From the NCBI GenBank assembly GCA_036490475.1, contig DASXDT010000004.1, positions 23,797 to 87,796 of the forward strand: a DNA stretch of 64,000 nucleotides, written 5' to 3'. The position numbers were made by a program, and so were the translations under genes. The stretch comes from Candidatus Tumulicola sp. (GTDB lineage: Bacteria; Vulcanimicrobiota; Vulcanimicrobiia; Vulcanimicrobiales; Vulcanimicrobiaceae). A model generated the notes under the pieces. That model made no database searches. It was not told the origin of the DNA and saw only the letters and a program-made list of their open reading frames with translations. Below, in pieces: positions 13,662 through 24,090 of this stretch. Position 1 is the stretch's first letter. The number at the start of each line of letters is the position of its first letter.

Positions 13662-14729
13662 TTATGCGACCACTTCTGCCCGTACGGCTGCAGCCTCGAA
13701 GTCGATGGTAAATCGTGCGAGTGTGATCTTCGCATCTGCCGCACCGTAGTAGACGTCGTACGTTCCGTCTTCCCGAACGTCGAGGCCGGTTGGAAAAACG
13801 ACATCGTCGACGATTCCGAAACGTTCGTCCGGAGTGACAGGCCCAAGCACCGGGACCGGCGACCGGTATATAATGTGGTGCGGACGCTCGAGGTCGTGTA
13901 CGATGATGCCCGCTCGATAGAGCAGTCCCTGACGTCCATCGCGCTTGACTGGATCGACGCCATGAAAGAACGACAGCCAACCGCCAAGACACCGCACTGG
14001 CGGCGTGCCGGCGCCGTTCTTCAGCCAGCCCCAGCGTTCGTCGACGCCAAGAAGCTCGACGCTTTCGTGCGCTTCACACAGCGCCGAAATGTCGCGTTCT
14101 ACTCGCGAGACGGGGATGTATGCGAGATACGTCGTTTCACGGTGGCTTGGATCAAGGGCCAGGATCACGGAGATTGGCGTCTGCCCGTTCACGCTGCCCG
14201 GCAACATCGGGCGATGGTAGAACGCATAGGACAGCACGCCGGTAGGCGAGAGCACCGGCTCTGGGAAGATAGCCGCGTCTTTGTTGTCGCGAGCGTTGAG
14301 CGGATGGTTTACAAACTCGACGAGCCCAAGCCGGCGCCACGAATATCCATCGCTGGATACAGCTAGCGCGATGCGAGGACCCGCGTCGCCGAAGGCGGTG
14401 TACGCCATGACATAAGCGTCGAGTCGGGGGACGAAGGTGACGCGAGCATCCTCGCAACCGTGTTCGCCATCGCGCAGCTCGTAGGGCGCTTCGGGTTCCA
14501 GCACGTATCCCAAACGCTCGAACGTTACGTTGCCATCAGATTCATCGCCTTTCGTCAGTCCGATTCGTGAAACGTTGCCTTGTGCCACGATGCGTGGATA
14601 CATGAGCAAAGCTCCGCTGCGATCGCGCGTGACACCGGGATTGAGTACACCTTCTATTTCGTTCGCGCTCCCGTCGGACGCGAGCACGATGCCCAAGCGG
14701 GTGTAGGTCGAAGAAACTTCCACGATCAA
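13662..14729 (-). CDS. glycoside hydrolase family 130-like (beta-mannoside phosphorylase/glycosidase fold)
   Basis: GVLNPGVTRDRSG...SRIGLT...GCEDARVTFVPRLDAYVMAYTAFGDAGPRIALAVSSDGYSWRRLG...DNKDAAIFPE, a GH130/DUF377-type pattern. TTGA overlap with the upstream gene. Confidence 0.75.
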   Translation of the reverse strand: MIVEVSSTYTRLGIVLASDGSANEIEGVLNPGVTRDRSGALLMYPRIVAQGNVSRIGLTKGDESDGNVTFERLGYVLEPEAPYELRDGEHGCEDARVTFVPRLDAYVMAYTAFGDAGPRIALAVSSDGYSWRRLGLVEFVNHPLNARDNKDAAIFPEPVLSPTGVLSYAFYHRPMLPGSVNGQTPISVILALDPSHRETTYLAYIPVSRVERDISALCEAHESVELLGVDERWGWLKNGAGTPPVRCLGGWLSFFHGVDPVKRDGRQGLLYRAGIIVHDLERPHHIIYRSPVPVLGPVTPDERFGIVDDVVFPTGLDVREDGTYDVYYGAADAKITLARFTIDFEAAAVRAEVVA

Positions 14730-16942
14730 GCGCGCTTCTTTTTAGTAGGCGTGAAGCGGATTTCGTACCGCGTGTCGCCGTTGCAATCGTAAGTCGCGTG
14801 CCCTTCGACCGACGTGGTTCCTTTGAGGCGGCTCGATTGGCCGCGTTTCGTAACCAGGTGCGGCAACGCGGGTTTCTCGGCGTCGATCGGAATGACGCGC
14901 AGCCGGCATTCTCCACGCGTATCTCCGCCGACGTGAAAGCTCGCCAGCGTTGCATTACCCCGCTTCTTCGTGGCGAAATCGTAGATAGGGTAGCTACAGA
15001 ATATCATGCAATTTGCCGAGTTTACGAGGGTGTAATGGCGCCCCGAATAGACGAACGGCAAACCGGAACCGTAGAGCTCCTGACCGACCTCACCGGATAG
15101 TTTGGCGCCGTCTTGAAGATCTTCGAGCGGTATCGATAGTGCGCGTTCGACCTTGCCGTTGCGGCTTTTCTCGGCGACGCCATCGACGGGCAGCGCGTCG
15201 GGATAGTAAAACCAGCCACGATCGAGGCTATACTTTTGGTATTCGGCAAGCAACAATCGAACGGATGGGCGAATGCCGGCGCCGCCGAGCGCCAAATAGT
15301 CGTGGAACTTCGCCTGCGTTTCCATTTCCTCGTACGCCGCCAAATACGGCGCGTCGTGGAGGGGAAACAGGCCGAAAAACGTGGTGTAGTATTGCGCTTT
15401 GCCGTAATCACATTCCCACAGCCACATGTTGTCGAAGATGTTGGCCAGACAGAATTCGCTCAGCTCGAGATACGAGCGTTCTTTCGTAAGCAACCAGAGC
15501 CGTAGAGCCGCTTCGGCAGCAAATCCGGTCGTGTTCGTTTGATACCCAATCGCGAAGCCGAGGCCCTCCATCGTTGCGATGGCGCGCTTTGCTTCGTCCA
15601 GATATTCGGGTTCTCCGAACATTTCGTGAGCGTCGAGCATCACCAACGCATACAGGCCCGCAACGTCGCGCTCGCCGCCTTTGCCCGGCGCGGACTCCGC
15701 TCTTACGACCGCGAGGGTTTTGAGGTTGAAAAAGATGGGCCAACGATAATCGAATCGCCGGGCGACGCGCACGGCAAACTCGAGCGACTTTCGAAACATC
15801 GCGCGTGCCTTTGCGTTCCCGAGCGTTGCGAGACGCGAGACGTTGAACAGCGAGTGGTACAAAATACCAGCTGTCCATCGCCTCGTGATTCATGTTATCT
15901 TCGGACTGATCGCCGAAATCAGCGCCCGGCAGCCAACGCACGACCGAACCGATCGCCGGATCGAAAAACGCGTCGATCCCTTTCATGAGCGTGGCTGAAA
16001 GCGGGCTGCGATAGCCTCTCCACTCCTCATATTCGAGGGTGTTGACCAGCACGGTGAGAGTTGGACCATGCTTTCGGGCGGCTTGGTGGTGTCGCCCACG
16101 TACGGCATGATGTACCGATGGCCGTCGCGCTCGTACGTGCACGCCGGCGAAAGGCAGAGGTCGCGCATCGTTTTGCCGGCGCGCTCCGGCCAATCGTGGT
16201 ATGCGGCGGGAGGCCGTTGGAGCGACAGATAAATGTCGGCTAACAAATCGAAGTATTCGCCAGCTAGTTCGTTCGGCGCCGGATACCGGCCGGGTACGAC
16301 GGCCAAGAACGCGTCGGACAAAACGAACTCGCGCGAGCCCGGCAGCGGGCATCCCGCATTGACCGGGGCTACAAAGCCACCCTCCTCCAGCGTTCCGCCG
16401 ACTGTTCCGGCGGGCGACGTTTGTGTTGTAGCAAACAGATCCGTTAACGACGAGAAATTTTGCAGATAGAGTATCGAGGCCGTGACCGGCGCGTCGTAGC
16501 TGGCGTACACAATGCCGGTGCGTAGACCGCGCTGCGTGGTATGGACTTCACCGCTGCAACCGTCGGCGCCAAACAGATCGCGCATCGGCTGCAGCAAAGC
16601 GTCGCGTGCGGGTAGCAGCGACGTCGTGCAACGTATTGCCAGTTCTGCCGACTTCGGAAAGGCGATCCTTAACCGAACGGCGCCGAGCGACGTGCACCAA
16701 TCACAGACCCACTCGTCATCGACGCGTGACAGTGAGGGCTCGCCTTCTATCGGTGCGCCGACGCCGCAGCGCAGCGCCACGATGTCGGAGGTGCCGTTTG
16801 TTGCAACCACCCAGAAATTCTCGAGGCCCGCGCGCAGCTCGTAGAAAACCTCGCCGCGCTGACCAAGTTCGATCAACCGCATGGCGCGGAACGCGTCATT
16901 GTTTCTCGCACGGCGTAACGGTGGAAGCATAGTCTCGGGCAT
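14726..16942 (-). pseudogene. large (~738 codon) unknown protein, possibly (alpha/alpha)6 glycoside-hydrolase-like, interrupted by two compensating frameshifts
   Basis: ORFs 15983..16942 and 14726..15862 are in the same frame. Between about 16065 and 15870 the protein-like reading (HGPTLTVLVNTLEYEEWRGYRSPLSATLMKGIDAFFDPAIGSVVRWLPGADFGDQSEDNMNHEAMDSWYF) is in the frame of ORF 15408..16352, while the native frame there is junk ending in a stop at 15983. Confidence 0.55.
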
Positions 16943-17043
16943 GACGGTCGACCTCCGTTGTTCGTGCGTGTGAGGGTTGGAGTCGTCGGCTCACCGATTT
17001 ACGCGCCATCTATACCGCGGACGCGTTTTTCTTAAACCCAGCC

Positions 17044-17778
17044 CTAGTAGGCCAAGAACTGCACCGGATCGTCGCCGTTTACGGCCGCGCGGAGACTGTG
17101 GGTAAACTGATCCGCCGTGATCTGGTAGCACTCGCACGCGGCCGACTCCAGCCCTTTACGATCGCGAATTTCCACATGCCCTCGGATATATTTGATGAAG
17201 CCCGCCTGTTGTAGCGAAGCTGCGGCAATGCTTACCCCCGGCCGATGCACGCCAAGCATAATGGCCAGAAACTCCTGCGTGAGGTCGAACTGATCTCCGC
17301 CGACGCGATCGTGCGACATGAGGAGCCAGCGGGCACAACGTTCGTCGACCGTATGCAAGCGATTGCAAGCGATCGATTGGCCCATAAAATTAAACAGCGC
17401 TTCGGTGTACCTGCGGACGATGCGCTGGAACGTTCTGGCCGTCTTGAGGTGCCGCAAGAACCGGTCGACGGGCATGCGTAACGACTCGCCTGGAATTTGA
17501 CAGATCATTTGGCTCGGTGCGCGATCGCCTCCAAGAATCAACTGCGCGCCGGAGAGCCCTTCCAGCCCGAACGTGCCAATCTCAACGGCCGCCCCGCTTT
17601 GCATGACCGTGAGTACAGAAAGCACCGCCCCTTGCGGAAAGTACACGTGCGACAGAGGCTCGTCGACCGGATATAAAATGTCGCGGACGCGCAATGTTAT
17701 GCGCTCGAGGTCTGGCCGGATTGCGGCCTGCTCTCGCTCCGGTAAAGCCGCGAGAACCCGATTCTTGAAGGGTTGGAT
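17044..17778 (-). CDS. Crp/Fnr family transcriptional regulator, probable ATC start
   Basis: cNMP-like barrel plus HTH LTQEFLAIMLGVHRPGVSIAAASLQQAGFIKYIRGHVEI. The family-typical N-terminus NRVLAALPEREQAAIRPDLERITL is encoded upstream of track start TTG 17694. The only candidate start after stop TGA is ATC 17778-17776, preceded by AGGTG. Confidence 0.8.
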   Translation of the reverse strand: MQPFKNRVLAALPEREQAAIRPDLERITLRVRDILYPVDEPLSHVYFPQGAVLSVLTVMQSGAAVEIGTFGLEGLSGAQLILGGDRAPSQMICQIPGESLRMPVDRFLRHLKTARTFQRIVRRYTEALFNFMGQSIACNRLHTVDERCARWLLMSHDRVGGDQFDLTQEFLAIMLGVHRPGVSIAAASLQQAGFIKYIRGHVEIRDRKGLESAACECYQITADQFTHSLRAAVNGDDPVQFLAY

Positions 17779-17905
17779 TGCGAAACACCTACATGCTGAC
17801 TGTCGTCAAGCAAGTAAGCGCTGTGTGCTTGCCGGAGAACCAATTAAGCATAGCACGGCTCAGTCCGCTTATGTACGAATTACTACAAAGAAAAATGTTT
17901 GCCGC

Positions 17906-17921
17906 TGTGTTTGATTTCATA
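17906..17921. promoter_or_regulatory. candidate CRP/FNR-type half-palindromic site
   Basis: TGTGT-TTGATT-TCATA resembles TGTGA-N6-TCACA (4/5 + 4/5). It lies in the AT-richer divergent region between the Crp/Fnr gene and the STAS gene, ~60 nt upstream of ATG 17980. Confidence 0.2.
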
Positions 17922-17979
17922 CAGAACCGAAAGGCGTTTTCATTTACTATCGGCGTGCGCGATCTCAAGGGAGGTTTCG

Positions 17980-18336
17980 ATGCACGACAATCGACCGCTA
18001 GTAATCCGGCTTACCGATGACGAGTGGGACCTGTCGAAGCGGGGAAAGCTGCAGTTTCTTCTCTCCCCAGCGACCGAACGACCGCGCGTATGCATCGACA
18101 TGAGCGCGGTCACATTCATGGACGCTAGTTGTCTTGGAAAGCTCGCTAATATGCAAAGAGAACGCCGCCGTAAGGCCGGTCTAGGCCCTGCCACGTTCGT
18201 CGTAATGTACCCGGCGGTCCGGAGACTTTTTAAACTGGTTGGCTTTGACAAAGTTTGGCCGATTTTCGGCACCTTGGACGAGGCGCTCGCCGGTGATTCG
18301 CCGCAGGACGATCTGGACTACAAAGCTGCGATATAG
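17980..18336 (+). CDS. STAS domain protein (anti-sigma-factor antagonist-like)
   Basis: GGGAGG SD then ATG. CIDMSAVTFMDASCLGKLANM...VVMYPAVRRLFKLVGFDKVWPIF is the STAS/SpoIIAA pattern. Confidence 0.75.
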   Translation: MHDNRPLVIRLTDDEWDLSKRGKLQFLLSPATERPRVCIDMSAVTFMDASCLGKLANMQRERRRKAGLGPATFVVMYPAVRRLFKLVGFDKVWPIFGTLDEALAGDSPQDDLDYKAAI

Positions 18337-18339
18337 ATT

Positions 18340-18540
18340 TTAGGAGACCTTTTCGTCGCCCCGCGTCGCATCGCGAGCTGCCTGCTTGACCTCGTCGGCG
18401 CCCGAAGCGCAAACGGAGTGTTCGCACTGGCAGCTCGCGTTATCGTTTGACGCCTTGCATTTGGGATCGCAGTACTCGCCCTCAGCGCCGGTTTGGCACT
18501 TGCAACCGTCGCCACGGCAGTTGTATTTGGAACCTTCCAT
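18340..18540 (-). CDS. small Cys-rich protein, bacterial metallothionein-like
   Basis: 66 aa with 8 Cys and 1 His in 32 residues: NCRGDGCKCQTGAEGEYCDPKCKASNDNASCQCEHSVC. The C-x-C...G-x-YC-xxx-C arrangement recalls the SmtA/BmtA family. Confidence 0.5.
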   Translation of the reverse strand: MEGSKYNCRGDGCKCQTGAEGEYCDPKCKASNDNASCQCEHSVCASGADEVKQAARDATRGDEKVS

Positions 18541-18575
18541 CGCTCCCTCTTACCCATCTACGGGCGTTATCGGCG

Positions 18576-19175
18576 TCAGTTGCGTTGTGCCAGTACTTCG
18601 TAGGCGATCGGCTTGCACTGTCCGGCGTTGGTCAACTCCGACGAACATGCAGTGATTCCAACGATAAGATCCCGCTGGGCGCGTAGCTCGAAGCGGTCGC
18701 CAACGCGCGACGGCGGAGGATGGATCGTTATGCGCCCGTCTGGATCGACACGAACGTCCATAAACACGTTGAGCGTCGCGACGATAGCATGCGGGCCGAT
18801 TCCGAAGGGCGCAAGCGATGCCGTTAGGTTTGCGTGGCAGCTCGGGTGGCCGAACTCGCCGCGCTTGGCAAACATTGCCTGGCTGCACGGGGCGAGCAAC
18901 ATATCGTGAACGCCGACGTCGTCGCGCGTTATCACTGCGAGTTCGTTGCTGCGTTGCGAGTAGAGCGCATCGTCGACGCGCACTTTGATACGTTCGAGAT
19001 AGTCGATGGTTCGGCCGGGCGAAAACGACTCTAACACGTCGGCGGCGCTGAACAAGGCGAGGTCGGCGACTTGACCGCCGACCGTATCGATGATTGCAAG
19101 CGTGTCACCGCGACGCAGCTGCACCGCAGTGCCGGTTTTGGGCGCTAGGAGTGTTGTTGGGGACGAAACGGGCAT
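18576..19175 (-). CDS. DUF1989 (urea-carboxylase-associated) family protein
   Basis: LRRGDTLAIIDTVGGQVADL...SPGRTIDY...VHDMLLAPCS...GHPSCHANL...LNVFMDV...GDRFELRAQRDLIVGITACS, the typical DUF1989 pattern. Confidence 0.8.
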   Translation of the reverse strand: MPVSSPTTLLAPKTGTAVQLRRGDTLAIIDTVGGQVADLALFSAADVLESFSPGRTIDYLERIKVRVDDALYSQRSNELAVITRDDVGVHDMLLAPCSQAMFAKRGEFGHPSCHANLTASLAPFGIGPHAIVATLNVFMDVRVDPDGRITIHPPPSRVGDRFELRAQRDLIVGITACSSELTNAGQCKPIAYEVLAQRN

Positions 19176-19942
19176 TTCCAGTCATCCTCCGTCGCGCGGC
19201 CTGCGTACTGGCGCGCCTCACTGCGGGTTCCGAATTCGCGAAGTTCGGGATTTAGCGATCCTTGCAGCGTGAGTTCGCGTTTGCGAACGGCCGTTACGAT
19301 GCGATCGAAGTCTCCCGTTTGTCGGGCGGTGTCGAACTGGTCGTGCGAGTTGAACGCGAGGGCCGGCATGAAGAACCGTCGCGACGTGCGAGACGCGTTA
19401 GGATGCATGCCGACGATAAAAAATGCGGTTCCTGCGAAGCTGAATGAGAATTGTGGGTTTGCGGGATCGCTGGCTACGGACGCGTTGTACGGATTGTGGC
19501 GCGCGTCGAGTTCGTGGAGACGTTGTAGAATGCGCCAGAGATTGCGTTCGAACCAGCGTTCGTCGCCGCAGCTGAGTTCCTCGAACGTGGCGACAAATGT
19601 GGCGTAGCGTGAGTGTATGGACGGGCGCTCGGCCACGAAGGCCGCGAGGTCTCTTGCGACGCCTTCTATCGCTTCGGAGGGTGCGAAGCCGGGATAATAG
19701 CCGAAGCGGTAACCGCCGGCAGTTACGGCGGCCTTTGCAGCCACGCACGAGCAGTTGTCGCTTTGTACGAACGCGCGCAGCGATGCATCGGTAATGCGAG
19801 CGCGAGGCGATGGCTCGCGTCGATCGATCAGCCGCGTGAGCGTGTCGTTTTCGAAGGCGCTGTAGTTGCTGAACCTGCGCGCTGCCGCCGATACGAACGG
19901 TGAGGATATAGTGTATTCGTCGAGCGGAGTATCGGCGTTCAC
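19145..19942 (-). CDS. YqcI/YcgG family protein (heme-dependent oxygenase-like family)
   Basis: GTG 19942 overlaps the upstream stop (GTGA). NCSCVAAKAAV...YATFVATF...FERNLWRILQRLH...FSFSFAGTAFFIVGMHPNASRTSRRFFMPALAFNSHDQF matches the YqcI/YcgG pattern. Confidence 0.8.
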   Translation of the reverse strand: MNADTPLDEYTISSPFVSAAARRFSNYSAFENDTLTRLIDRREPSPRARITDASLRAFVQSDNCSCVAAKAAVTAGGYRFGYYPGFAPSEAIEGVARDLAAFVAERPSIHSRYATFVATFEELSCGDERWFERNLWRILQRLHELDARHNPYNASVASDPANPQFSFSFAGTAFFIVGMHPNASRTSRRFFMPALAFNSHDQFDTARQTGDFDRIVTAVRKRELTLQGSLNPELREFGTRSEARQYAGRATEDDWKCPFRPQQHS

Positions 19943-20907
19943 GGTGTGTTTCTTGTCAGGCGTGCGGGTGGTGTTGCGGCATCGCGAATCACGTTCCCAG
20001 CGTAGCGAATGCCGCCGCGGGAAACGCGTTGGTAGATGGCGATCCACGCGCATAGTCCGCGTTCTACCAGCCAGAGCGGGGCGGCGGCGACGCTCCAGAG
20101 TGAGAAGTGCGCCCAGGCACCGTCGCGGAGCCAACCGGCGAATGCGAGAGCGATTCCGGCGATCGCTAGCGCTTCAGCGACGGCGGGCGCTTTTAGCAGC
20201 ACTGAGGCGCAGAGTAGTGGGATAATGGTTAGCGCTACGGCGAGTCGCGCGGGCCGCGCGAATTCGTCGTAAGCTTGGCGCACGCGCTGGCTCCAGTATT
20301 GCTGGGACGTTGGGGCTAGACGGCGCACGAAGATGTCGCGAGCGACACGCTCTCTCCCGCCGTTGGCGCGGATGGTTCGGACGAGTTCTAGGTTTTCAAA
20401 CAGCACGTCGGCGTTGTAGCCATCGGGCAAGGCGCTCTTGCGAATTGCGAGCGTACCGGGCCAGTCGCCGTCGAGGCTTCGATTGATCAGCGAGCGCGCA
20501 CCGTCCAAGATCGCATGCCAGGGCGTGGGTTTGAAATAGTTCTGCGGGCGTACGACTTCGGCGCTGCCCAGTGCTTCGATAACCGCGCGCAAAGCGTTTT
20601 GGTCGTAACGAACGTCGTCGTCGGCAATGACGACGCGCTCGCGCGTAGCGTGCTGTAGACCGGTGAGGACGCCGCGCACTTTGCCGTTAAGGCCTCGCAG
20701 GGACGGATCTGGCGACAGATGCTTTACTGCGGTGGGCAGAGCGTCGCGCAGCGCGTCGAACGCGGCGGCGGGCGAGCCATCGACGACGATGATTTCGGAA
20801 ATCGGGAGCGACGCGAGATAGGCGGCCAGCTCTCTTTCGTGAGCGGGTTTTTCGCGCCGGATTGGGAGCAAGTAGGTAGCGTCGATTCTTGGCGAGGGTT
20901 CGGTCAC
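19939..20907 (-). CDS. glycosyltransferase family 2 with C-terminal membrane segments
   Basis: YLLPIR...IIVVDGS...GKVRGVLTGLQHATRERVVIADDDVRY (GT-A fold, DxD-like DDD), then hydrophobic C-terminal helices. Confidence 0.8.
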   Translation of the reverse strand: MTEPSPRIDATYLLPIRREKPAHERELAAYLASLPISEIIVVDGSPAAAFDALRDALPTAVKHLSPDPSLRGLNGKVRGVLTGLQHATRERVVIADDDVRYDQNALRAVIEALGSAEVVRPQNYFKPTPWHAILDGARSLINRSLDGDWPGTLAIRKSALPDGYNADVLFENLELVRTIRANGGRERVARDIFVRRLAPTSQQYWSQRVRQAYDEFARPARLAVALTIIPLLCASVLLKAPAVAEALAIAGIALAFAGWLRDGAWAHFSLWSVAAAPLWLVERGLCAWIAIYQRVSRGGIRYAGNVIRDAATPPARLTRNTP

Positions 20908-21152
20908 GGTTCATCGCTTCTGCCCGGCGCGTCTTCGCATCAAACGTATTTTGGCGTAGAATAAGAGACATGAATCGTTATAGACGGGCGGCTTTTGCCT
21001 TATTGGCGGTGCTTTTACCTGCCAGCACGGGCTGCCCCATGACGATTCGCCGGCGCAGCCAATGGAATCTCTGCACGTCGTCGACGTTTCCGTGCAAACG
21101 TTGAGCCGTTGGCTCGACGTTTCACATCAACGCGGACTTATCTGCCGGGTAA

Positions 21153-21722
21153 TTAGCTGTTGAGAAGCGCGAGTGCTTGCTTCGAGCGACGGTCGTTAAA
21201 ATCGTGGGCGAGTTCGCCGAGAATGGCCGGTACCGACCACATTTCCACGCCGGCTTGTTGCATTCGCATGACCGCGGCCCACTCGCCTCGCTCGGATTTT
21301 CCGTTGCAGGCGTCGAGCGCAACCATCACACGGTAGCCTTTGGCGAGGCCGCTTAACGCGGCACGCTGCACCGCAATTTCGGTGACGACGCCGCAGACGA
21401 TAAGCGTCTTGCGGCCGGTTTGTTCGATCACGCGCGCGATGTCGTGATCCTCGAGTGAATCGGTGCCGTTGCGGATACGGACCGGCACCGAGCCCGCGAG
21501 CGTCTCGCGAAGTTGGTGCGTTAGTTGCGGCTCGCCGTTTACGACGACCGTGCTGACCACGATCGGCATGTCGAATAATTGCGCGGCACGAGCGAGCTTT
21601 CCGGCGGCGTCGTCGACCGACTTCTTATCGGCGGTCTTCGCGCCTTCGACGATTCCGTGCTGGTGATCGACGAATAGCACGACTGCGGCACCCTCGAGGG
21701 GCGGAGTAGCGGATTCTGGCAT
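21153..21722 (-). CDS. isochorismatase-family cysteine hydrolase
   Basis: VVLFVDHQHGIV...PIVVSTV...TLIVCGVVTEIAVQRAALSGLAKGYRVMVALDACNG. Confidence 0.85.
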   Translation of the reverse strand: MPESATPPLEGAAVVLFVDHQHGIVEGAKTADKKSVDDAAGKLARAAQLFDMPIVVSTVVVNGEPQLTHQLRETLAGSVPVRIRNGTDSLEDHDIARVIEQTGRKTLIVCGVVTEIAVQRAALSGLAKGYRVMVALDACNGKSERGEWAAVMRMQQAGVEMWSVPAILGELAHDFNDRRSKQALALLNS

Positions 21723-21837
21723 ACGCCGCCTATACCCAAATCCCAGTCGTATTCGTCAGCTCGACCGCGTGCCGTCTTCGGTGCGTTTCGCCAATACCGT
21801 TGCGCTTCTAGCCTTCATACGGCCGCCTTTATTTGCA

Positions 21838-22146
21838 TCACTTCCGAATCAAGAAGACGCGGCGGTACGACCAACAGTGGCGGATGGCTGCACCCAATAA
21901 AACGGCCGCGCCGAGTGCGAGGCTAAAGCGCGCCATCAACGTCGGTGCGAACGCGGTGCAGCCCGCCACCAACGAAGTGGCGCATATAAGCGCAGCTGCG
22001 AGCAGCAGCACTTCGCGGGCGGTCAAAATCGGCAACCCCCGATTCTTACGGTGCAAATAGATCAGCAGGATCGCGTACAGATTGTAGCCGCCGAGCAATC
22101 CGATCAAGGCGATTGTGACATACGCGGCGGTGAAGTCTGCATTCAT
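21838..22146 (-). CDS. small membrane protein
   Basis: 102 aa with three hydrophobic helices. No family recognised. Confidence 0.5.
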   Translation of the reverse strand: MNADFTAAYVTIALIGLLGGYNLYAILLIYLHRKNRGLPILTAREVLLLAAALICATSLVAGCTAFAPTLMARFSLALGAAVLLGAAIRHCWSYRRVFLIRK

Positions 22147-22242
22147 TTGTAAGGAAAGCCGGACAGCGCGAAGGGACGCCGGTTTAAAACCGTCGTCCCC
22201 ATCGTACCTTTTTTGACACTACGCGCGTACGCGTCTTGCCGT

Positions 22243-22704
22243 TTAGCGGCGCGTCTTGCGACCGCTGCTGGTCTTTTTCGCTGCGGCCTTACGCGCAGGC
22301 GCTTTTTTCGCGACGGGACGAGCCGAGCCGCGCGCCGGAGCCTTCTTGGCCGTGGATTTTGCTGCCTTGGATTTCTTACGAGCGCCGGCCGCCGACTTTG
22401 CGCCGCCTGCCGATCTCGCGCCGCGCTTCGACATCACGGCTTCTTTCAGCGCCTTCGCTGGCAAGAATTTGAAGACGCGTTTCGCGGGAACTTTAACCTG
22501 TTCGCCGGTGGCCGGATTGCGAGCCATGCGAGCCGCACGATCGCGCACCTTGAACTGGCCGAACCCCGGGATTTTCACCGGCTCGCTGCCGACGACTGCC
22601 GCCTGGATATCTTCGAAGACTCCGTCGATCAGCGCGGCGGCGTCCTTACGCGAGAGGCCTTCCACTCGCTCCATGGCCGACCGGGTCAAGTCTACCTTGT
22701 TCAT
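22243..22704 (-). CDS. hup: HU/IHF-family DNA-binding protein with Lys/Ala-rich C-terminal tail
   Basis: MNKVDLTRSAMERVEGLSRKDAAALIDGVFEDI...IPGFGQFKVRDRAARMARNPATGEQVKVPAKRVFKFLPAKALKEAV, followed by ~60 aa of AKK/ARK repeats. GAAAGG SD. Confidence 0.85.
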   Translation of the reverse strand: MNKVDLTRSAMERVEGLSRKDAAALIDGVFEDIQAAVVGSEPVKIPGFGQFKVRDRAARMARNPATGEQVKVPAKRVFKFLPAKALKEAVMSKRGARSAGGAKSAAGARKKSKAAKSTAKKAPARGSARPVAKKAPARKAAAKKTSSGRKTRR

Positions 22705-22770
22705 CCGTACCTTTCCGTTTGAAAGCAAAGCACTTGGGGCGTCATCTACCCCTTCAACGTTCGATTTCCT

Positions 22771-24090
22771 ATGGATTTTTCAAGAAAAATGCGGTTTTTT
22801 CGCGCGCAGGGAACGCACCGTGCGACGGTAATTAGCTGCCCAATGCGCGGCGAGGTTACGATTCCGGGAGACAAATCCATCTCGCATCGAGCGCTTATTG
22901 CCGCCACTCGTGCTAGCGGCCCGGTTTCCATCGACAATTTGAACGGCGGCGCCGACGTTTCGGCGACGCGTAACGCATTGAGGGCGCTGGGTGCACGCAT
23001 CGAAAAACGCGACGGAGGCCGCATTTTGGTGCATCCGGCTACGTTGCGCGACGCGCTCGAAACGCTGGAATGCGCCAACTCCGGATCCACCGCGCGGATG
23101 CTGCTGGGCGCGTGCGCGGGCGCGGGCGTGCGAAGCCGCTTCGACGGCGATGCGTCGTTGCGCGTCCGACCGATGGAACCGGTGGCCGCGCAGCTGCGCG
23201 CGTTCGGTGCGCGGATCGAAACGACCGCCGGAACGCTGCCGCTGGAATTGGGCGGAACGCCCCAAATTCAAACGCGAAACTTCATATTGCTCGGCCCGTC
23301 GGCGCAGGTGAAATCGGCGCTGTTGTTCGCCGGATTGTTCGCGGGAGTGCCGGTTACGATTCGCGGAGATCGCGGCTCTCGCGACCACACCGAGCGGCTA
23401 TTGCGCTATATGGGCGCCGAGATTTCATGGGACGCGCGCGGCGTAGAACTGCAGGCCGGCGCGTTGCATTCCGACCCGATTCGGGTTGCGGGCGATTTTT
23501 CGGCCGCGGCGTTTTTCCTCACGGCGGCGGCGATTTCGCCCGGCGCGAGCGTCACCGTGCGCGATACCGGCGTCAATCCGACGCGCACCGGGTTGCTGGA
23601 TGCGTTGGCATCGATGGGATCGGTCGTTCGCCGTTCGAACGAGCGCGAGGTGTGCGGCGAACCGGTCGCCGACGTGACCGTTACGCACGCGCCGCTGCGC
23701 GCGGCCTCGATCGACGCGGATCTGGCGCTGCGCGCGATCGATGAAATTCCGTTGCTGGCGCTGGCCGCGGCATTCGCCGAGGGAGAGACGATGATCGCGG
23801 GCATCGCCGATTTGCGCACCAAAGAGTCGGATCGCGTCGCGGGAATCGCGCGATTGCTGGGCGGTTGCGGGATCGACGTTGTCGCGCAGGCGCGAACGCT
23901 AGCGATTCGCGGGGGCGTTCCCCGTTGGCAGGGCGGCGTTTTTGCAACGCACGGCGATCACCGTTTGGCGATGGCGGCGGCAATTTTGGCCTGCGCCGTG
24001 GGGCCGGTCGAGATCGACGATCCGTCGTCGGCCGACGTGAGTTTTCCGGGCTTCTTCGAGAAGCTCGAGCGTTTACGCGTTAGCGCGTAA
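22771..24090 (+). CDS. aroA: 3-phosphoshikimate 1-carboxyvinyltransferase (EPSP synthase)
   Basis: GEVTIPGDKSISHRALIAA...LNGGADVSATRNALRALG...KESDRVAG...THGDHRLAMAAAI. The start is uncertain among ATGs at 22771, 22789 and 22843. Confidence 0.9.
   Translation: MDFSRKMRFFRAQGTHRATVISCPMRGEVTIPGDKSISHRALIAATRASGPVSIDNLNGGADVSATRNALRALGARIEKRDGGRILVHPATLRDALETLECANSGSTARMLLGACAGAGVRSRFDGDASLRVRPMEPVAAQLRAFGARIETTAGTLPLELGGTPQIQTRNFILLGPSAQVKSALLFAGLFAGVPVTIRGDRGSRDHTERLLRYMGAEISWDARGVELQAGALHSDPIRVAGDFSAAAFFLTAAAISPGASVTVRDTGVNPTRTGLLDALASMGSVVRRSNEREVCGEPVADVTVTHAPLRAASIDADLALRAIDEIPLLALAAAFAEGETMIAGIADLRTKESDRVAGIARLLGGCGIDVVAQARTLAIRGGVPRWQGGVFATHGDHRLAMAAAILACAVGPVEIDDPSSADVSFPGFFEKLERLRVSA

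Follow-up and report, generated by a model that had tools for sequence, protein, structure and literature searches.

The window analysed here is a stretch of 64,000 nt from Candidatus Tumulicola sp. (contig DASXDT010000004.1, positions 23,797 to 87,796) and carries an operon of four minus-strand genes. They encode a membrane glycosyltransferase of family 2 (GT2), here called GT2L, a protein of the YqcI/YcgG family (YcgG), a DUF1989 protein and a small Cys-rich protein (Table 1). All the coordinates and junctions given for these genes in the initial annotation, overlaps included, were reproduced. The stop codon of GT2L and the start codon of YcgG share the sequence GTGA (19939-19942), YcgG and DUF1989 overlap by 31 nt (19145-19175), and 35 nt (18541-18575) separate DUF1989 from the Cys-rich gene. 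The ATG of DUF1989 is preceded at 9 nt by GGAGGA, while the Shine-Dalgarno sequence GAGGGAG lies immediately 5' of the Cys-rich ATG. These overlaps and Shine-Dalgarno sites support the tight coupling into one unit that had been proposed. The operon of four open reading frames (ORFs) is real, and GT2L, YcgG and DUF1989, a trio present in single copy in this genome, are predicted to be translationally coupled. We found by sequence comparison that the trio is the conserved core of the locus, a coupled module, and that the GT2L family keeps company with predicted N-oxygenases of two unrelated folds.

Table 1. Positions of the operon genes and adjoining features in the window.
Feature	Position	Strand	Remarks
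GT2L (membrane GT2)	19939-20907	-	322 aa
YcgG (YqcI/YcgG family)	19145-19942	-	265 aa counted from GTG start
DUF1989 protein (predicted zinc enzyme)	18576-19175	-	199 aa
Cys-rich ORF	18340-18540	-	66 aa; 8 Cys + 1 His
STAS-domain protein, anti-sigma-factor-antagonist type	17980-18336	+	STAS_2 1.6e-9, STAS 3e-8
Crp/Fnr-family regulator	17044-17778	-	HTH_Crp_2 3.6e-14; divergent from STAS
Short 5' region of the operon	20908-20969	-	Common to divergent gene remnant

We used an even sample of 121 Eremiobacterota genomes to follow the genes within the phylum. YcgG was found in 10 of them and DUF1989 in the same 10, directly downstream of YcgG in nine; in the tenth (G092) both genes lie on separate short contigs. 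One further genome carried only a tandem CgdAB-like pair. GT2L was present in eight genomes, all of which have YcgG; it was always directly upstream of YcgG and never occurred without it. About 110 of the 121 genomes lacked all three genes (naive Fisher p ~5e-11 for the phyletic pattern). In three relatives, whose YcgG proteins are 48-60% identical to that of the window, GT2-like, YcgG and DUF1989 genes follow one another in that order and overlap. Co-conservation in related genomes, which the initial annotation had named as a check on its operon, was thus found for GT2L, YcgG and DUF1989, three of the four genes, because the trio is kept in relatives within the phylum. Of the four-gene set described there, the three-gene core stood, whereas the Cys-rich gene was confined to genus-level relatives.

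A wide scan (one genome per species, with a YcgG alignment as query) returned at least 586 loci, and the best 80 were analysed. In 69 of the 80, DUF1989 followed YcgG directly, with both genes on one strand, and four of the 11 exceptions end at a contig edge. The pair was found in Eremiobacterota, Acidobacteriota, Actinomycetota, Armatimonadota, Bacteroidota, Chloroflexota, Nitrospirota, Gemmatimonadota, Planctomycetota, Verrucomicrobiota, Pseudomonadota and Deinococcota, 12 phyla in total, with fusions in Myxococcota adding a 13th. When the concatenated proteins were used for searching, at least 27 protein clusters of YcgG-DUF1989 fusions were obtained (378-534 aa). The fusion of Nannocystis punicea, for example, is 498 aa long, with YcgG at residues 69-272 and DUF1989 at 307-472. 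Fusion and adjacency in 13 phyla are therefore strong evidence that both proteins act together. We also considered the neighbour of the Nannocystis fusion as a GT2L and rejected it, the adjoining gene not being GT2L; an apparent fusion on an Eremiobacterota-like contig (L168) was left out, as it is without both YcgG domain ends and may be an assembly artefact. Both families were present in the control genomes of Bacillus subtilis and Deinococcus radiodurans. We take the pair to be present in B. subtilis 168, where ycgG and ycgI presumably lie at a distance of two genes, separated by a permease gene and followed by one for a methyltransferase; we know of no GT2L at that locus. In the literature we found no paper linking YcgG with DUF1989 or with this GT2, and no pathway using the combination, as had been suspected.

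GT2L adjoined the pair in 41 of the 80 loci (E<=1e-10). It was upstream and codirectional in Eremiobacterota, Rubrobacter, Chloroflexota and a gammaproteobacterium, divergent in Pyrinomonadaceae, and downstream and convergent in Gemmatimonadota and Thermoanaerobaculia. Since the linkage survives three arrangements, it suggests function rather than inherited gene order. In a reverse scan, a GT2L alignment was searched against metagenome contigs and 80 loci were obtained. YcgG and/or DUF1989 was found at 49 of these. At 15 others, a gene of the haem-oxygenase-like diiron (HDO) family (PF14518) was directly upstream of GT2L instead, often together with one for a CDGSH iron-sulfur protein, and for most of the other 16 the contig was not long enough to decide. 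Among proteins of solved structure, the GT2L-linked HDO proteins were closest to RohS, HrmI and SznF, which all N-oxygenate amines or guanidines. A quick tree placed the HDO-linked GT2L proteins mainly in one supported clade within the YcgG-linked radiation. Judged by these arrangements, HDO and GT2L form a two-gene unit in its own right, and the GT2L family is defined by a predicted N-oxygenase partner of either of two unrelated folds, because that partner is either YcgG (with DUF1989) or an HDO protein resembling RohS, HrmI and SznF.

Haem-dependent YcgG (ChmN) and diiron HDO (SznF) are known to interchange as guanidine N-oxygenases (PMC10849742). The GT2L loci resemble the SznF and ChmM-ChmN systems in this non-homologous replacement of YcgG by HDO or the reverse, here beside GT2L. 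They differ in being without the cupin N-N-forming domain or a nonribosomal peptide synthetase, and in that the common partner is a membrane glycosyltransferase. On high-GC metagenome contigs the HDO gene was seen to be translationally coupled to GT2L (L115, 5374-7385), and the unit was also observed in L120-L123, L127, L137, L140, L142, L146, L152, L156, L160 and L163. A Nramp-like gene was noted by eye, with no family search, at the HDO-GT2L loci of L121 and L123.

The YcgG protein of the window contains the full PF08892 domain (4.2e-53; residues 56-260, profile positions 2-211 of 211). Six enzymes of this Pfam family, AglA, GntA, DcsA, ChmN, AmbT and Mhr24, have been characterised as thiolate-haem N-hydroxylases, with a crystal structure for AglA (PMC12866846), and guanidine nitrogens are the target of all six (PMC12866846, PMC10849742). 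The earlier statement that GntA is the one member with an assigned role is thus outdated. C66 of the window protein aligned to the axial thiolate ligand Cys44 of AglA (Cys47 in ChmN), R188 to the haem-propionate residue R166, and N198 to Q177. F175 and F203 aligned, at low identity, to F152 and F182, the two Phe residues between which AglA holds the arginine side chain. Among 117 YcgG sequences C66, R185 and R188 were invariant and both R188 and F203 reached at least 97% conservation; F175 was at least 90% conserved in a 10-sequence alignment (A1). The axial Cys, the propionate Arg and the arginine-sandwiching Phe pair are thus all kept in the alignment, although the window protein is only ~20-25% identical to AglA. 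We predict that it binds haem as a member of the thiolate-haem N-hydroxylase family. A further difference lies in gene context: the characterised enzymes come from natural-product clusters, whereas this clade occurs in a compact pair or trio with DUF1989 and a membrane GT2 across many phyla.

The DUF1989 protein matched PF09347 with an E-value of 1.6e-48. NCBIfam names the UAAP1 and UAAP2 subunits within this family, and we take these to be carboxyguanidine deiminase, CgdAB. The zinc domain of the trimethylamine N-oxide (TMAO) demethylase Tdm also belongs to DUF1989 (PMC12560246), so that the description of the family as known only from urea carboxylase association no longer applies. The window protein scored 89.9 bits against a cut-off of 284.7 and 78.5 against 205.95 with the UAAP1 and UAAP2 models, and 79 against 1100 bits with that of Tdm; its closest relatives in the PDB were 3oru (4e-23) and Tdm (9q59, 1.6e-12). 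As the scores are far below the CgdA, CgdB and Tdm cut-offs, it belongs to a separate subfamily. In 110 YcgG-linked sequences C97, C113, C177, D38 and D91 were invariant and H110 was conserved in 93%. The spacing of C97, H110, C113 and C177 is identical to that of the Tdm zinc site (C263, H276, C279 and C343), and we predict that the protein is a zinc enzyme with a Cys3 site. It therefore shares with CgdAB and Tdm, which act on a guanidine and on an N-oxide, respectively, the PF09347 fold, and with Tdm the spacing of the three Cys and the neighbouring His. In contrast to CgdAB, it is encoded by a single gene, not by a CgdA/CgdB pair, with no carboxylase or allophanate hydrolase adjoining; true tandem CgdAB-like pairs were found elsewhere (G039 and G120). 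In contrast to Tdm, it consists of the DUF1989 domain only, with no GCV_T domain.

GT2L gave a weak match to Pfam GT2/GT21 (23.9 bits; cut-off 21.7). A profile search of the PDB returned PcManGT (6yv7, 3e-6) and ArnC (0.01), and an AlphaFold2 model (pLDDT 96.9, pTM 0.93) gave PcManGT (9e-10), a Chlorella hyaluronan synthase, BcsA, ArnC and DPMS as top Foldseek matches. The residues D43, D96, D98 and E174 of the GT-A domain were invariant in 61 sequences and D97 was at least 90% conserved. At the position of the QxxRW motif, the protein has Q207-R208-V-R210-Q211 (QRxRQ), in which both Gln and both Arg are invariant and the Trp is replaced. Helices at ~219-297 include hydrophobic stretches that we read as membrane helices. 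GT2L is thus modelled as a membrane GT2 of a distinct orthologous family with a GT-A fold and a DXD motif. It resembles minimal cellulose-synthase-like membrane GT2 enzymes (PcManGT; also ArnC, DPMS, hyaluronan synthase and BcsA) in having the GT-A domain with DXD followed by interface and membrane helices; it differs from them in its low identity (10-21%), in the QRxRQ motif and in its linkage to N-oxygenases, which defines the family. One orthologue (G051:C2:1806607-1807554) was seen to contain an in-frame TGA and could be a pseudogene or reflect a sequencing error.

Further genes recur beside the pair or trio. A pyridoxal phosphate (PLP)-dependent decarboxylase of the Orn/DAP/Arg type was found upstream of GT2L at 17 loci in Eremiobacterota. 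In Gemmatimonadota and Acidobacteriota there was a group-II PLP decarboxylase, with diaminobutyrate decarboxylase as the nearest relative, at 12 loci of the genome scan and at more in the metagenome scan. As two non-homologous decarboxylases occupy the same position, a basic amino acid precursor is indicated. Gemmatimonadota loci also contained genes for a cardiolipin-synthase-like (Cls-like) phospholipase D and for a membrane protein matching the flippase half of MprF (1e-47), and these genes, together with the fold of GT2L, point to the membrane. An S-adenosylmethionine-dependent methyltransferase was found near the pair or trio in Rubrobacter, Dehalococcoidia and a gammaproteobacterium. Transporters of the major facilitator superfamily (MFS) or ATP-binding cassette (ABC) type recurred near the pair, with exporter-type ABC genes adjoining it in Micromonospora. 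In Nitrospirota (L054, 6123-7871, and relatives) a conserved soluble protein of ~580 aa with no family match is encoded directly upstream of the pair; its motif STQSKGYDSTAVN is supposed to resemble a PP-loop, and it may be a lineage-specific partner. The upstream proteins of Nitrospirota (582 aa) and Cytophagales (~690 aa) were considered as a common partner and rejected, since they have no family matches and are mutually unrelated.

We propose that the module oxygenates the nitrogen of a guanidino or amino metabolite, which is then cleaved, and couples this to a membrane glycoconjugate; we give this function about an even chance of being correct. The substrate would be a small basic metabolite, with arginine, or a derivative related to it by decarboxylation or otherwise, as the likeliest candidate; YcgG would hydroxylate its guanidino or amino nitrogen with electrons from a ferredoxin system encoded elsewhere. 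DUF1989 would then hydrolyse or deiminate the N-hydroxyguanidine at its Cys3 zinc site, a reaction comparable to those of its relatives CgdAB, on carboxyguanidine, and Tdm, on an N-oxide. At the membrane, GT2L would attach the N-oxygenated product, or a carrier of it, to an acceptor, either sugar or lipid, and so form a glycoconjugate of the envelope or a glycoside for export. The pathway may be extended in other lineages by PLP decarboxylases, the Cls-like phospholipase D, the MprF-like flippase and the methyltransferase, while in the genus of the window the Cys-rich protein, STAS and Crp would be a local accessory or regulatory addition. N-oxygenation together with glycosylation was one of the two readings offered by the initial annotation and it fits the comparative data; it gains strength from the loci without YcgG and DUF1989, where the partner of GT2L is an unrelated diiron N-oxygenase. 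The first two steps would follow the logic of D-cycloserine synthesis, in which DcsA makes N-hydroxyarginine and DcsB hydrolyses it to hydroxyurea and ornithine. There, too, a YcgG-family N-hydroxylase acts first, and a second enzyme then cleaves the guanidine that it has modified. However, DcsB is an arginase homologue, its place here being taken by the DUF1989 zinc protein, which is sometimes fused to YcgG, and the other dcs genes are absent.

Several points weigh against this proposal. All the chemical steps are inferred from distant relatives, given the ~20-25% identity to AglA and the scores far below the CgdAB and Tdm cut-offs, and their order is not fixed, as GT2L could act before or after N-oxygenation. 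Many pairs in Nitrospirota, Bacteroidota, Deinococcota and Micromonospora are without GT2L, and the pair therefore has a function independent of the transferase. The Orn/DAP/Arg-type decarboxylase, present in most relatives in the phylum, was missing from the genome of the window in a tblastn search. No ferredoxin or reductase gene was found within the operon cluster, and the sequencing runs that contain the operon sequence were DNA runs only, with no RNA runs among them.

Alternatively, YcgG and DUF1989 could be catabolic or scavenge nitrogen, degrading an external guanidino compound (guanidine, arginine, agmatine or methylguanidine) to assimilable products of the urea or ammonia type, with GT2L having an independent role in the envelope. 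Such a role would agree with guanidine assimilation by the DUF1989 relatives UAAP1 and UAAP2 (presumed above to be CgdAB), with the transporters near the pair (MFS; an amino-acid permease in L168), with a patchy distribution like that of accessory catabolic genes and with the many pairs that have no GT2L. It does not account for GT2L never occurring without the pair in the 121 phylum genomes, nor for its adjacency being kept through three arrangements, or else with another N-oxygenase as partner. Urea or guanidine carboxylase and allophanate hydrolase genes were not found nearby, and an Rfam search of the window (16500-23000) and of ten diverse loci gave no guanidine riboswitch, nor any other credible riboswitch or leader RNA. 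The ABC genes adjoining the Micromonospora pair are of the exporter type, and haem hydroxylation, which consumes O2 and NADPH, would be a costly way of releasing nitrogen. We consider catabolism unlikely.

Another explanation is that the pair generates reactive nitrogen: YcgG would form N-hydroxyarginine and DUF1989 would convert it to hydroxylamine, HNO or nitric oxide (NO) and a citrulline-like product, for signalling or antagonism independent of NO synthase, sensed through the adjacent Crp/Fnr-type regulator. This chemistry mirrors the two half-reactions of NO synthase, and Nitrospirota, in which hydroxylamine occurs as a metabolite, are among the carriers of the pair. Some members of the Crp/Fnr family sense NO. 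Crp orthologues (42-46% identity) were found near the trio in L005, L024 and L089, and in L115 a Crp of the same subfamily is directly upstream of the HDO-GT2L pair, so that both types of GT2L locus are represented; we treat these regulators as a lead for regulation rather than a demonstration of it. A further point in favour is that Tdm uses its DUF1989 domain on an N-O substrate (PMC12560246). On the other hand, there is no direct evidence for such a generator, the Crp association was found in only 5 of ~160 loci, NO-detoxifying genes are not in the cluster, and the decarboxylases, the methyltransferase and GT2L are left unexplained, which makes this explanation very doubtful.

The NCBI pipeline gives P0001, P0014, P0036, P0052 and other YcgG proteins the name 'guanitoxin biosynthesis ... 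GntA', which would imply a secondary-metabolite cluster for a toxin or antibiotic of the guanitoxin, argolaphos or D-cycloserine kind. The window YcgG indeed scored 245 bits against the GntA model NF041366 (cut-off 145), and in three actinomycetotal loci (L037, L043 and L070) YcgG lies inside large multi-gene clusters of natural-product type that have no DUF1989. In the window, however, the gene is not in a gnt cluster, its neighbours being GT2L, DUF1989, the Cys-rich gene, STAS, Crp and an isochorismatase-family gene; no other guanitoxin, argolaphos or cycloserine genes adjoin it, and there are no further biosynthetic genes. Neighbours are of envelope type, and the same compact pair or trio recurs in 13 phyla, including genomes of ~2-3 Mb, unlike lineage-specific clusters. 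We therefore rejected the GntA and natural-product-cluster identity on gene context, and this explanation now seems scarcely plausible. Since the cut-off of NF041366 is permissive (145 bits) and gene context contradicts the name, we judge GntA to be a systematic over-annotation across many phyla, and thousands of public 'GntA, guanitoxin biosynthesis' names are probably wrong. A point in favour of a biosynthetic cluster is a relative with an 81%-identical YcgG, in which a gene for a DcsG_N-domain protein lies a few genes upstream. On this contig (P0010) the region upstream of a GT2L-YcgG-DUF1989-small-gene set encodes an AsnC-type regulator, two proteins of ~349 aa and the DcsG_N-domain protein, the domain being that of the D-cycloserine ATP-grasp enzyme; the pathway of that strain may include these genes as well.

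The Cys-rich protein has the pattern C-x4-C-x-C-x8-C-x3-C-x8-C-x-C-x-H-x2-C followed by a charged tail. Orthologues in L085 and L086 were 80-85% identical, with all 8 Cys and the His invariant, and the ORF can be taken as a real gene. It follows DUF1989 only in genus-level relatives, in which STAS and Crp are kept as well, and it was found at none of the other pair or trio loci even at permissive thresholds. A paralogue (C3:123074-123277) overlaps the start of a gene for a methyltransferase resembling cyclopropane-fatty-acid (CFA) synthase (122064-123074) in a different operon, and ~2-3 kb away on C3 are genes for a Crp-type regulator (119575-120381), a STAS protein (120741-121142) and an RsbW-like kinase (121196-121639). 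The Cys-rich/Crp/STAS set thus occurs a second time in the genome, which suggests that the small protein travels with Crp and STAS and not with the trio. Degraded Cys-rich fragments were seen at C2:1515715-1515808 and C3:101116-101178.

The initial annotation had called this protein metallothionein-like and had offered a metal-linked system as its second reading. We found no Pfam family match up to E=10, metallothionein included, and a BLASTP comparison with an approximate SmtA sequence was not significant (E=0.24 over 22 residues), leaving only a loose likeness in Cys spacing; the SmtA/BmtA identity was therefore rejected. That the protein is a metallothionein or metallochaperone serving the haem and zinc enzymes in an operon responding to metal stress is hard to credit, even with 8 Cys and 1 His within 37 residues, a spacing loosely like that of SmtA/BmtA and a need of YcgG for iron and of DUF1989 for zinc, because the gene is missing from every trio or pair locus outside the genus, its paralogue is the first gene of another operon, next to a second Crp/STAS pair, and metal transporters or metal-sensing regulators are not in this region of the window.

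The STAS gene and the Crp gene had both been described as downstream of the operon and convergent with it. This is correct for STAS, which is on the plus strand and whose stop is 3 nt from that of the Cys-rich gene, but Crp is on the minus strand, like the operon. The STAS ORF is open from a TTG at 17899, and the ATG at 17980 fits the length of its relatives (117-118 aa) better; the Crp start is uncertain, at TTG 17694 or further upstream, the Crp proteins of relatives being 245 aa long. The ~95 nt 5' of the operon GTG were near-identical between the window and the relative L085. No sigma-70 consensus stood out upstream of the operon, a promoter and terminator scan being no better than with shuffled sequence, and the window, L085, L086 and the C3 paralogue were found to share no Crp-type palindrome in their upstream sequences. 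PADLOC gave no match to anti-phage defence systems for any of the six proteins.

On the plus strand beyond the operon, a 44-codon ORF (20970-21104) starting MNRYRRAAFALLAVLLPASTGC resembles a signal peptide of the lipoprotein type. Of a 486-aa gene that is divergent from GT2L in L085 (448-1908), only this N-terminal part is left in the window, and the isochorismatase-family gene follows on the minus strand (21153-21722). On the other side, two minus-strand ORFs (15983-16942 and 14726-15862, together 14726-16942) correspond to what is a single 738-aa gene upstream of a GH130 gene in L085 and L086, so that frameshifts or sequence errors break up the copy in the window.

A bolder form of our proposal would make YcgG-DUF1989 a machine for guanidino oxidation and cleavage that is independent of NO synthase and yields a product of the hydroxylamine, HNO, NO or hydroxyurea type, with GT2L placing an N-oxygenated head group on a membrane glycolipid or envelope polymer. 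We think this quite unlikely. If true, it would represent a hitherto undescribed class of envelope modification, and the interchange of YcgG plus DUF1989 with HDO would mark two convergent solutions to one envelope chemistry.

The YqcI/YcgG family has several thousand members, and the six that have been characterised all come from antibiotic or toxin pathways. A large share of the family appears in a different setting, as a compact pair with a predicted zinc protein of the DUF1989 family that is often tied to a dedicated membrane glycosyltransferase. New here are the strict phyletic pattern in the phylum, HDO as the alternative partner of GT2L, the two decarboxylase types, the MprF-like and Cls-like partners, and the finding that the Cys-rich, Crp and STAS genes stand apart from the core. 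DUF1989, placed until now in guanidine assimilation and in TMAO demethylation, would with this pair gain a third functional context. The proposed pathway is directly testable, since Nannocystis, Deinococcus, Micromonospora and B. subtilis provide carriers in culture.

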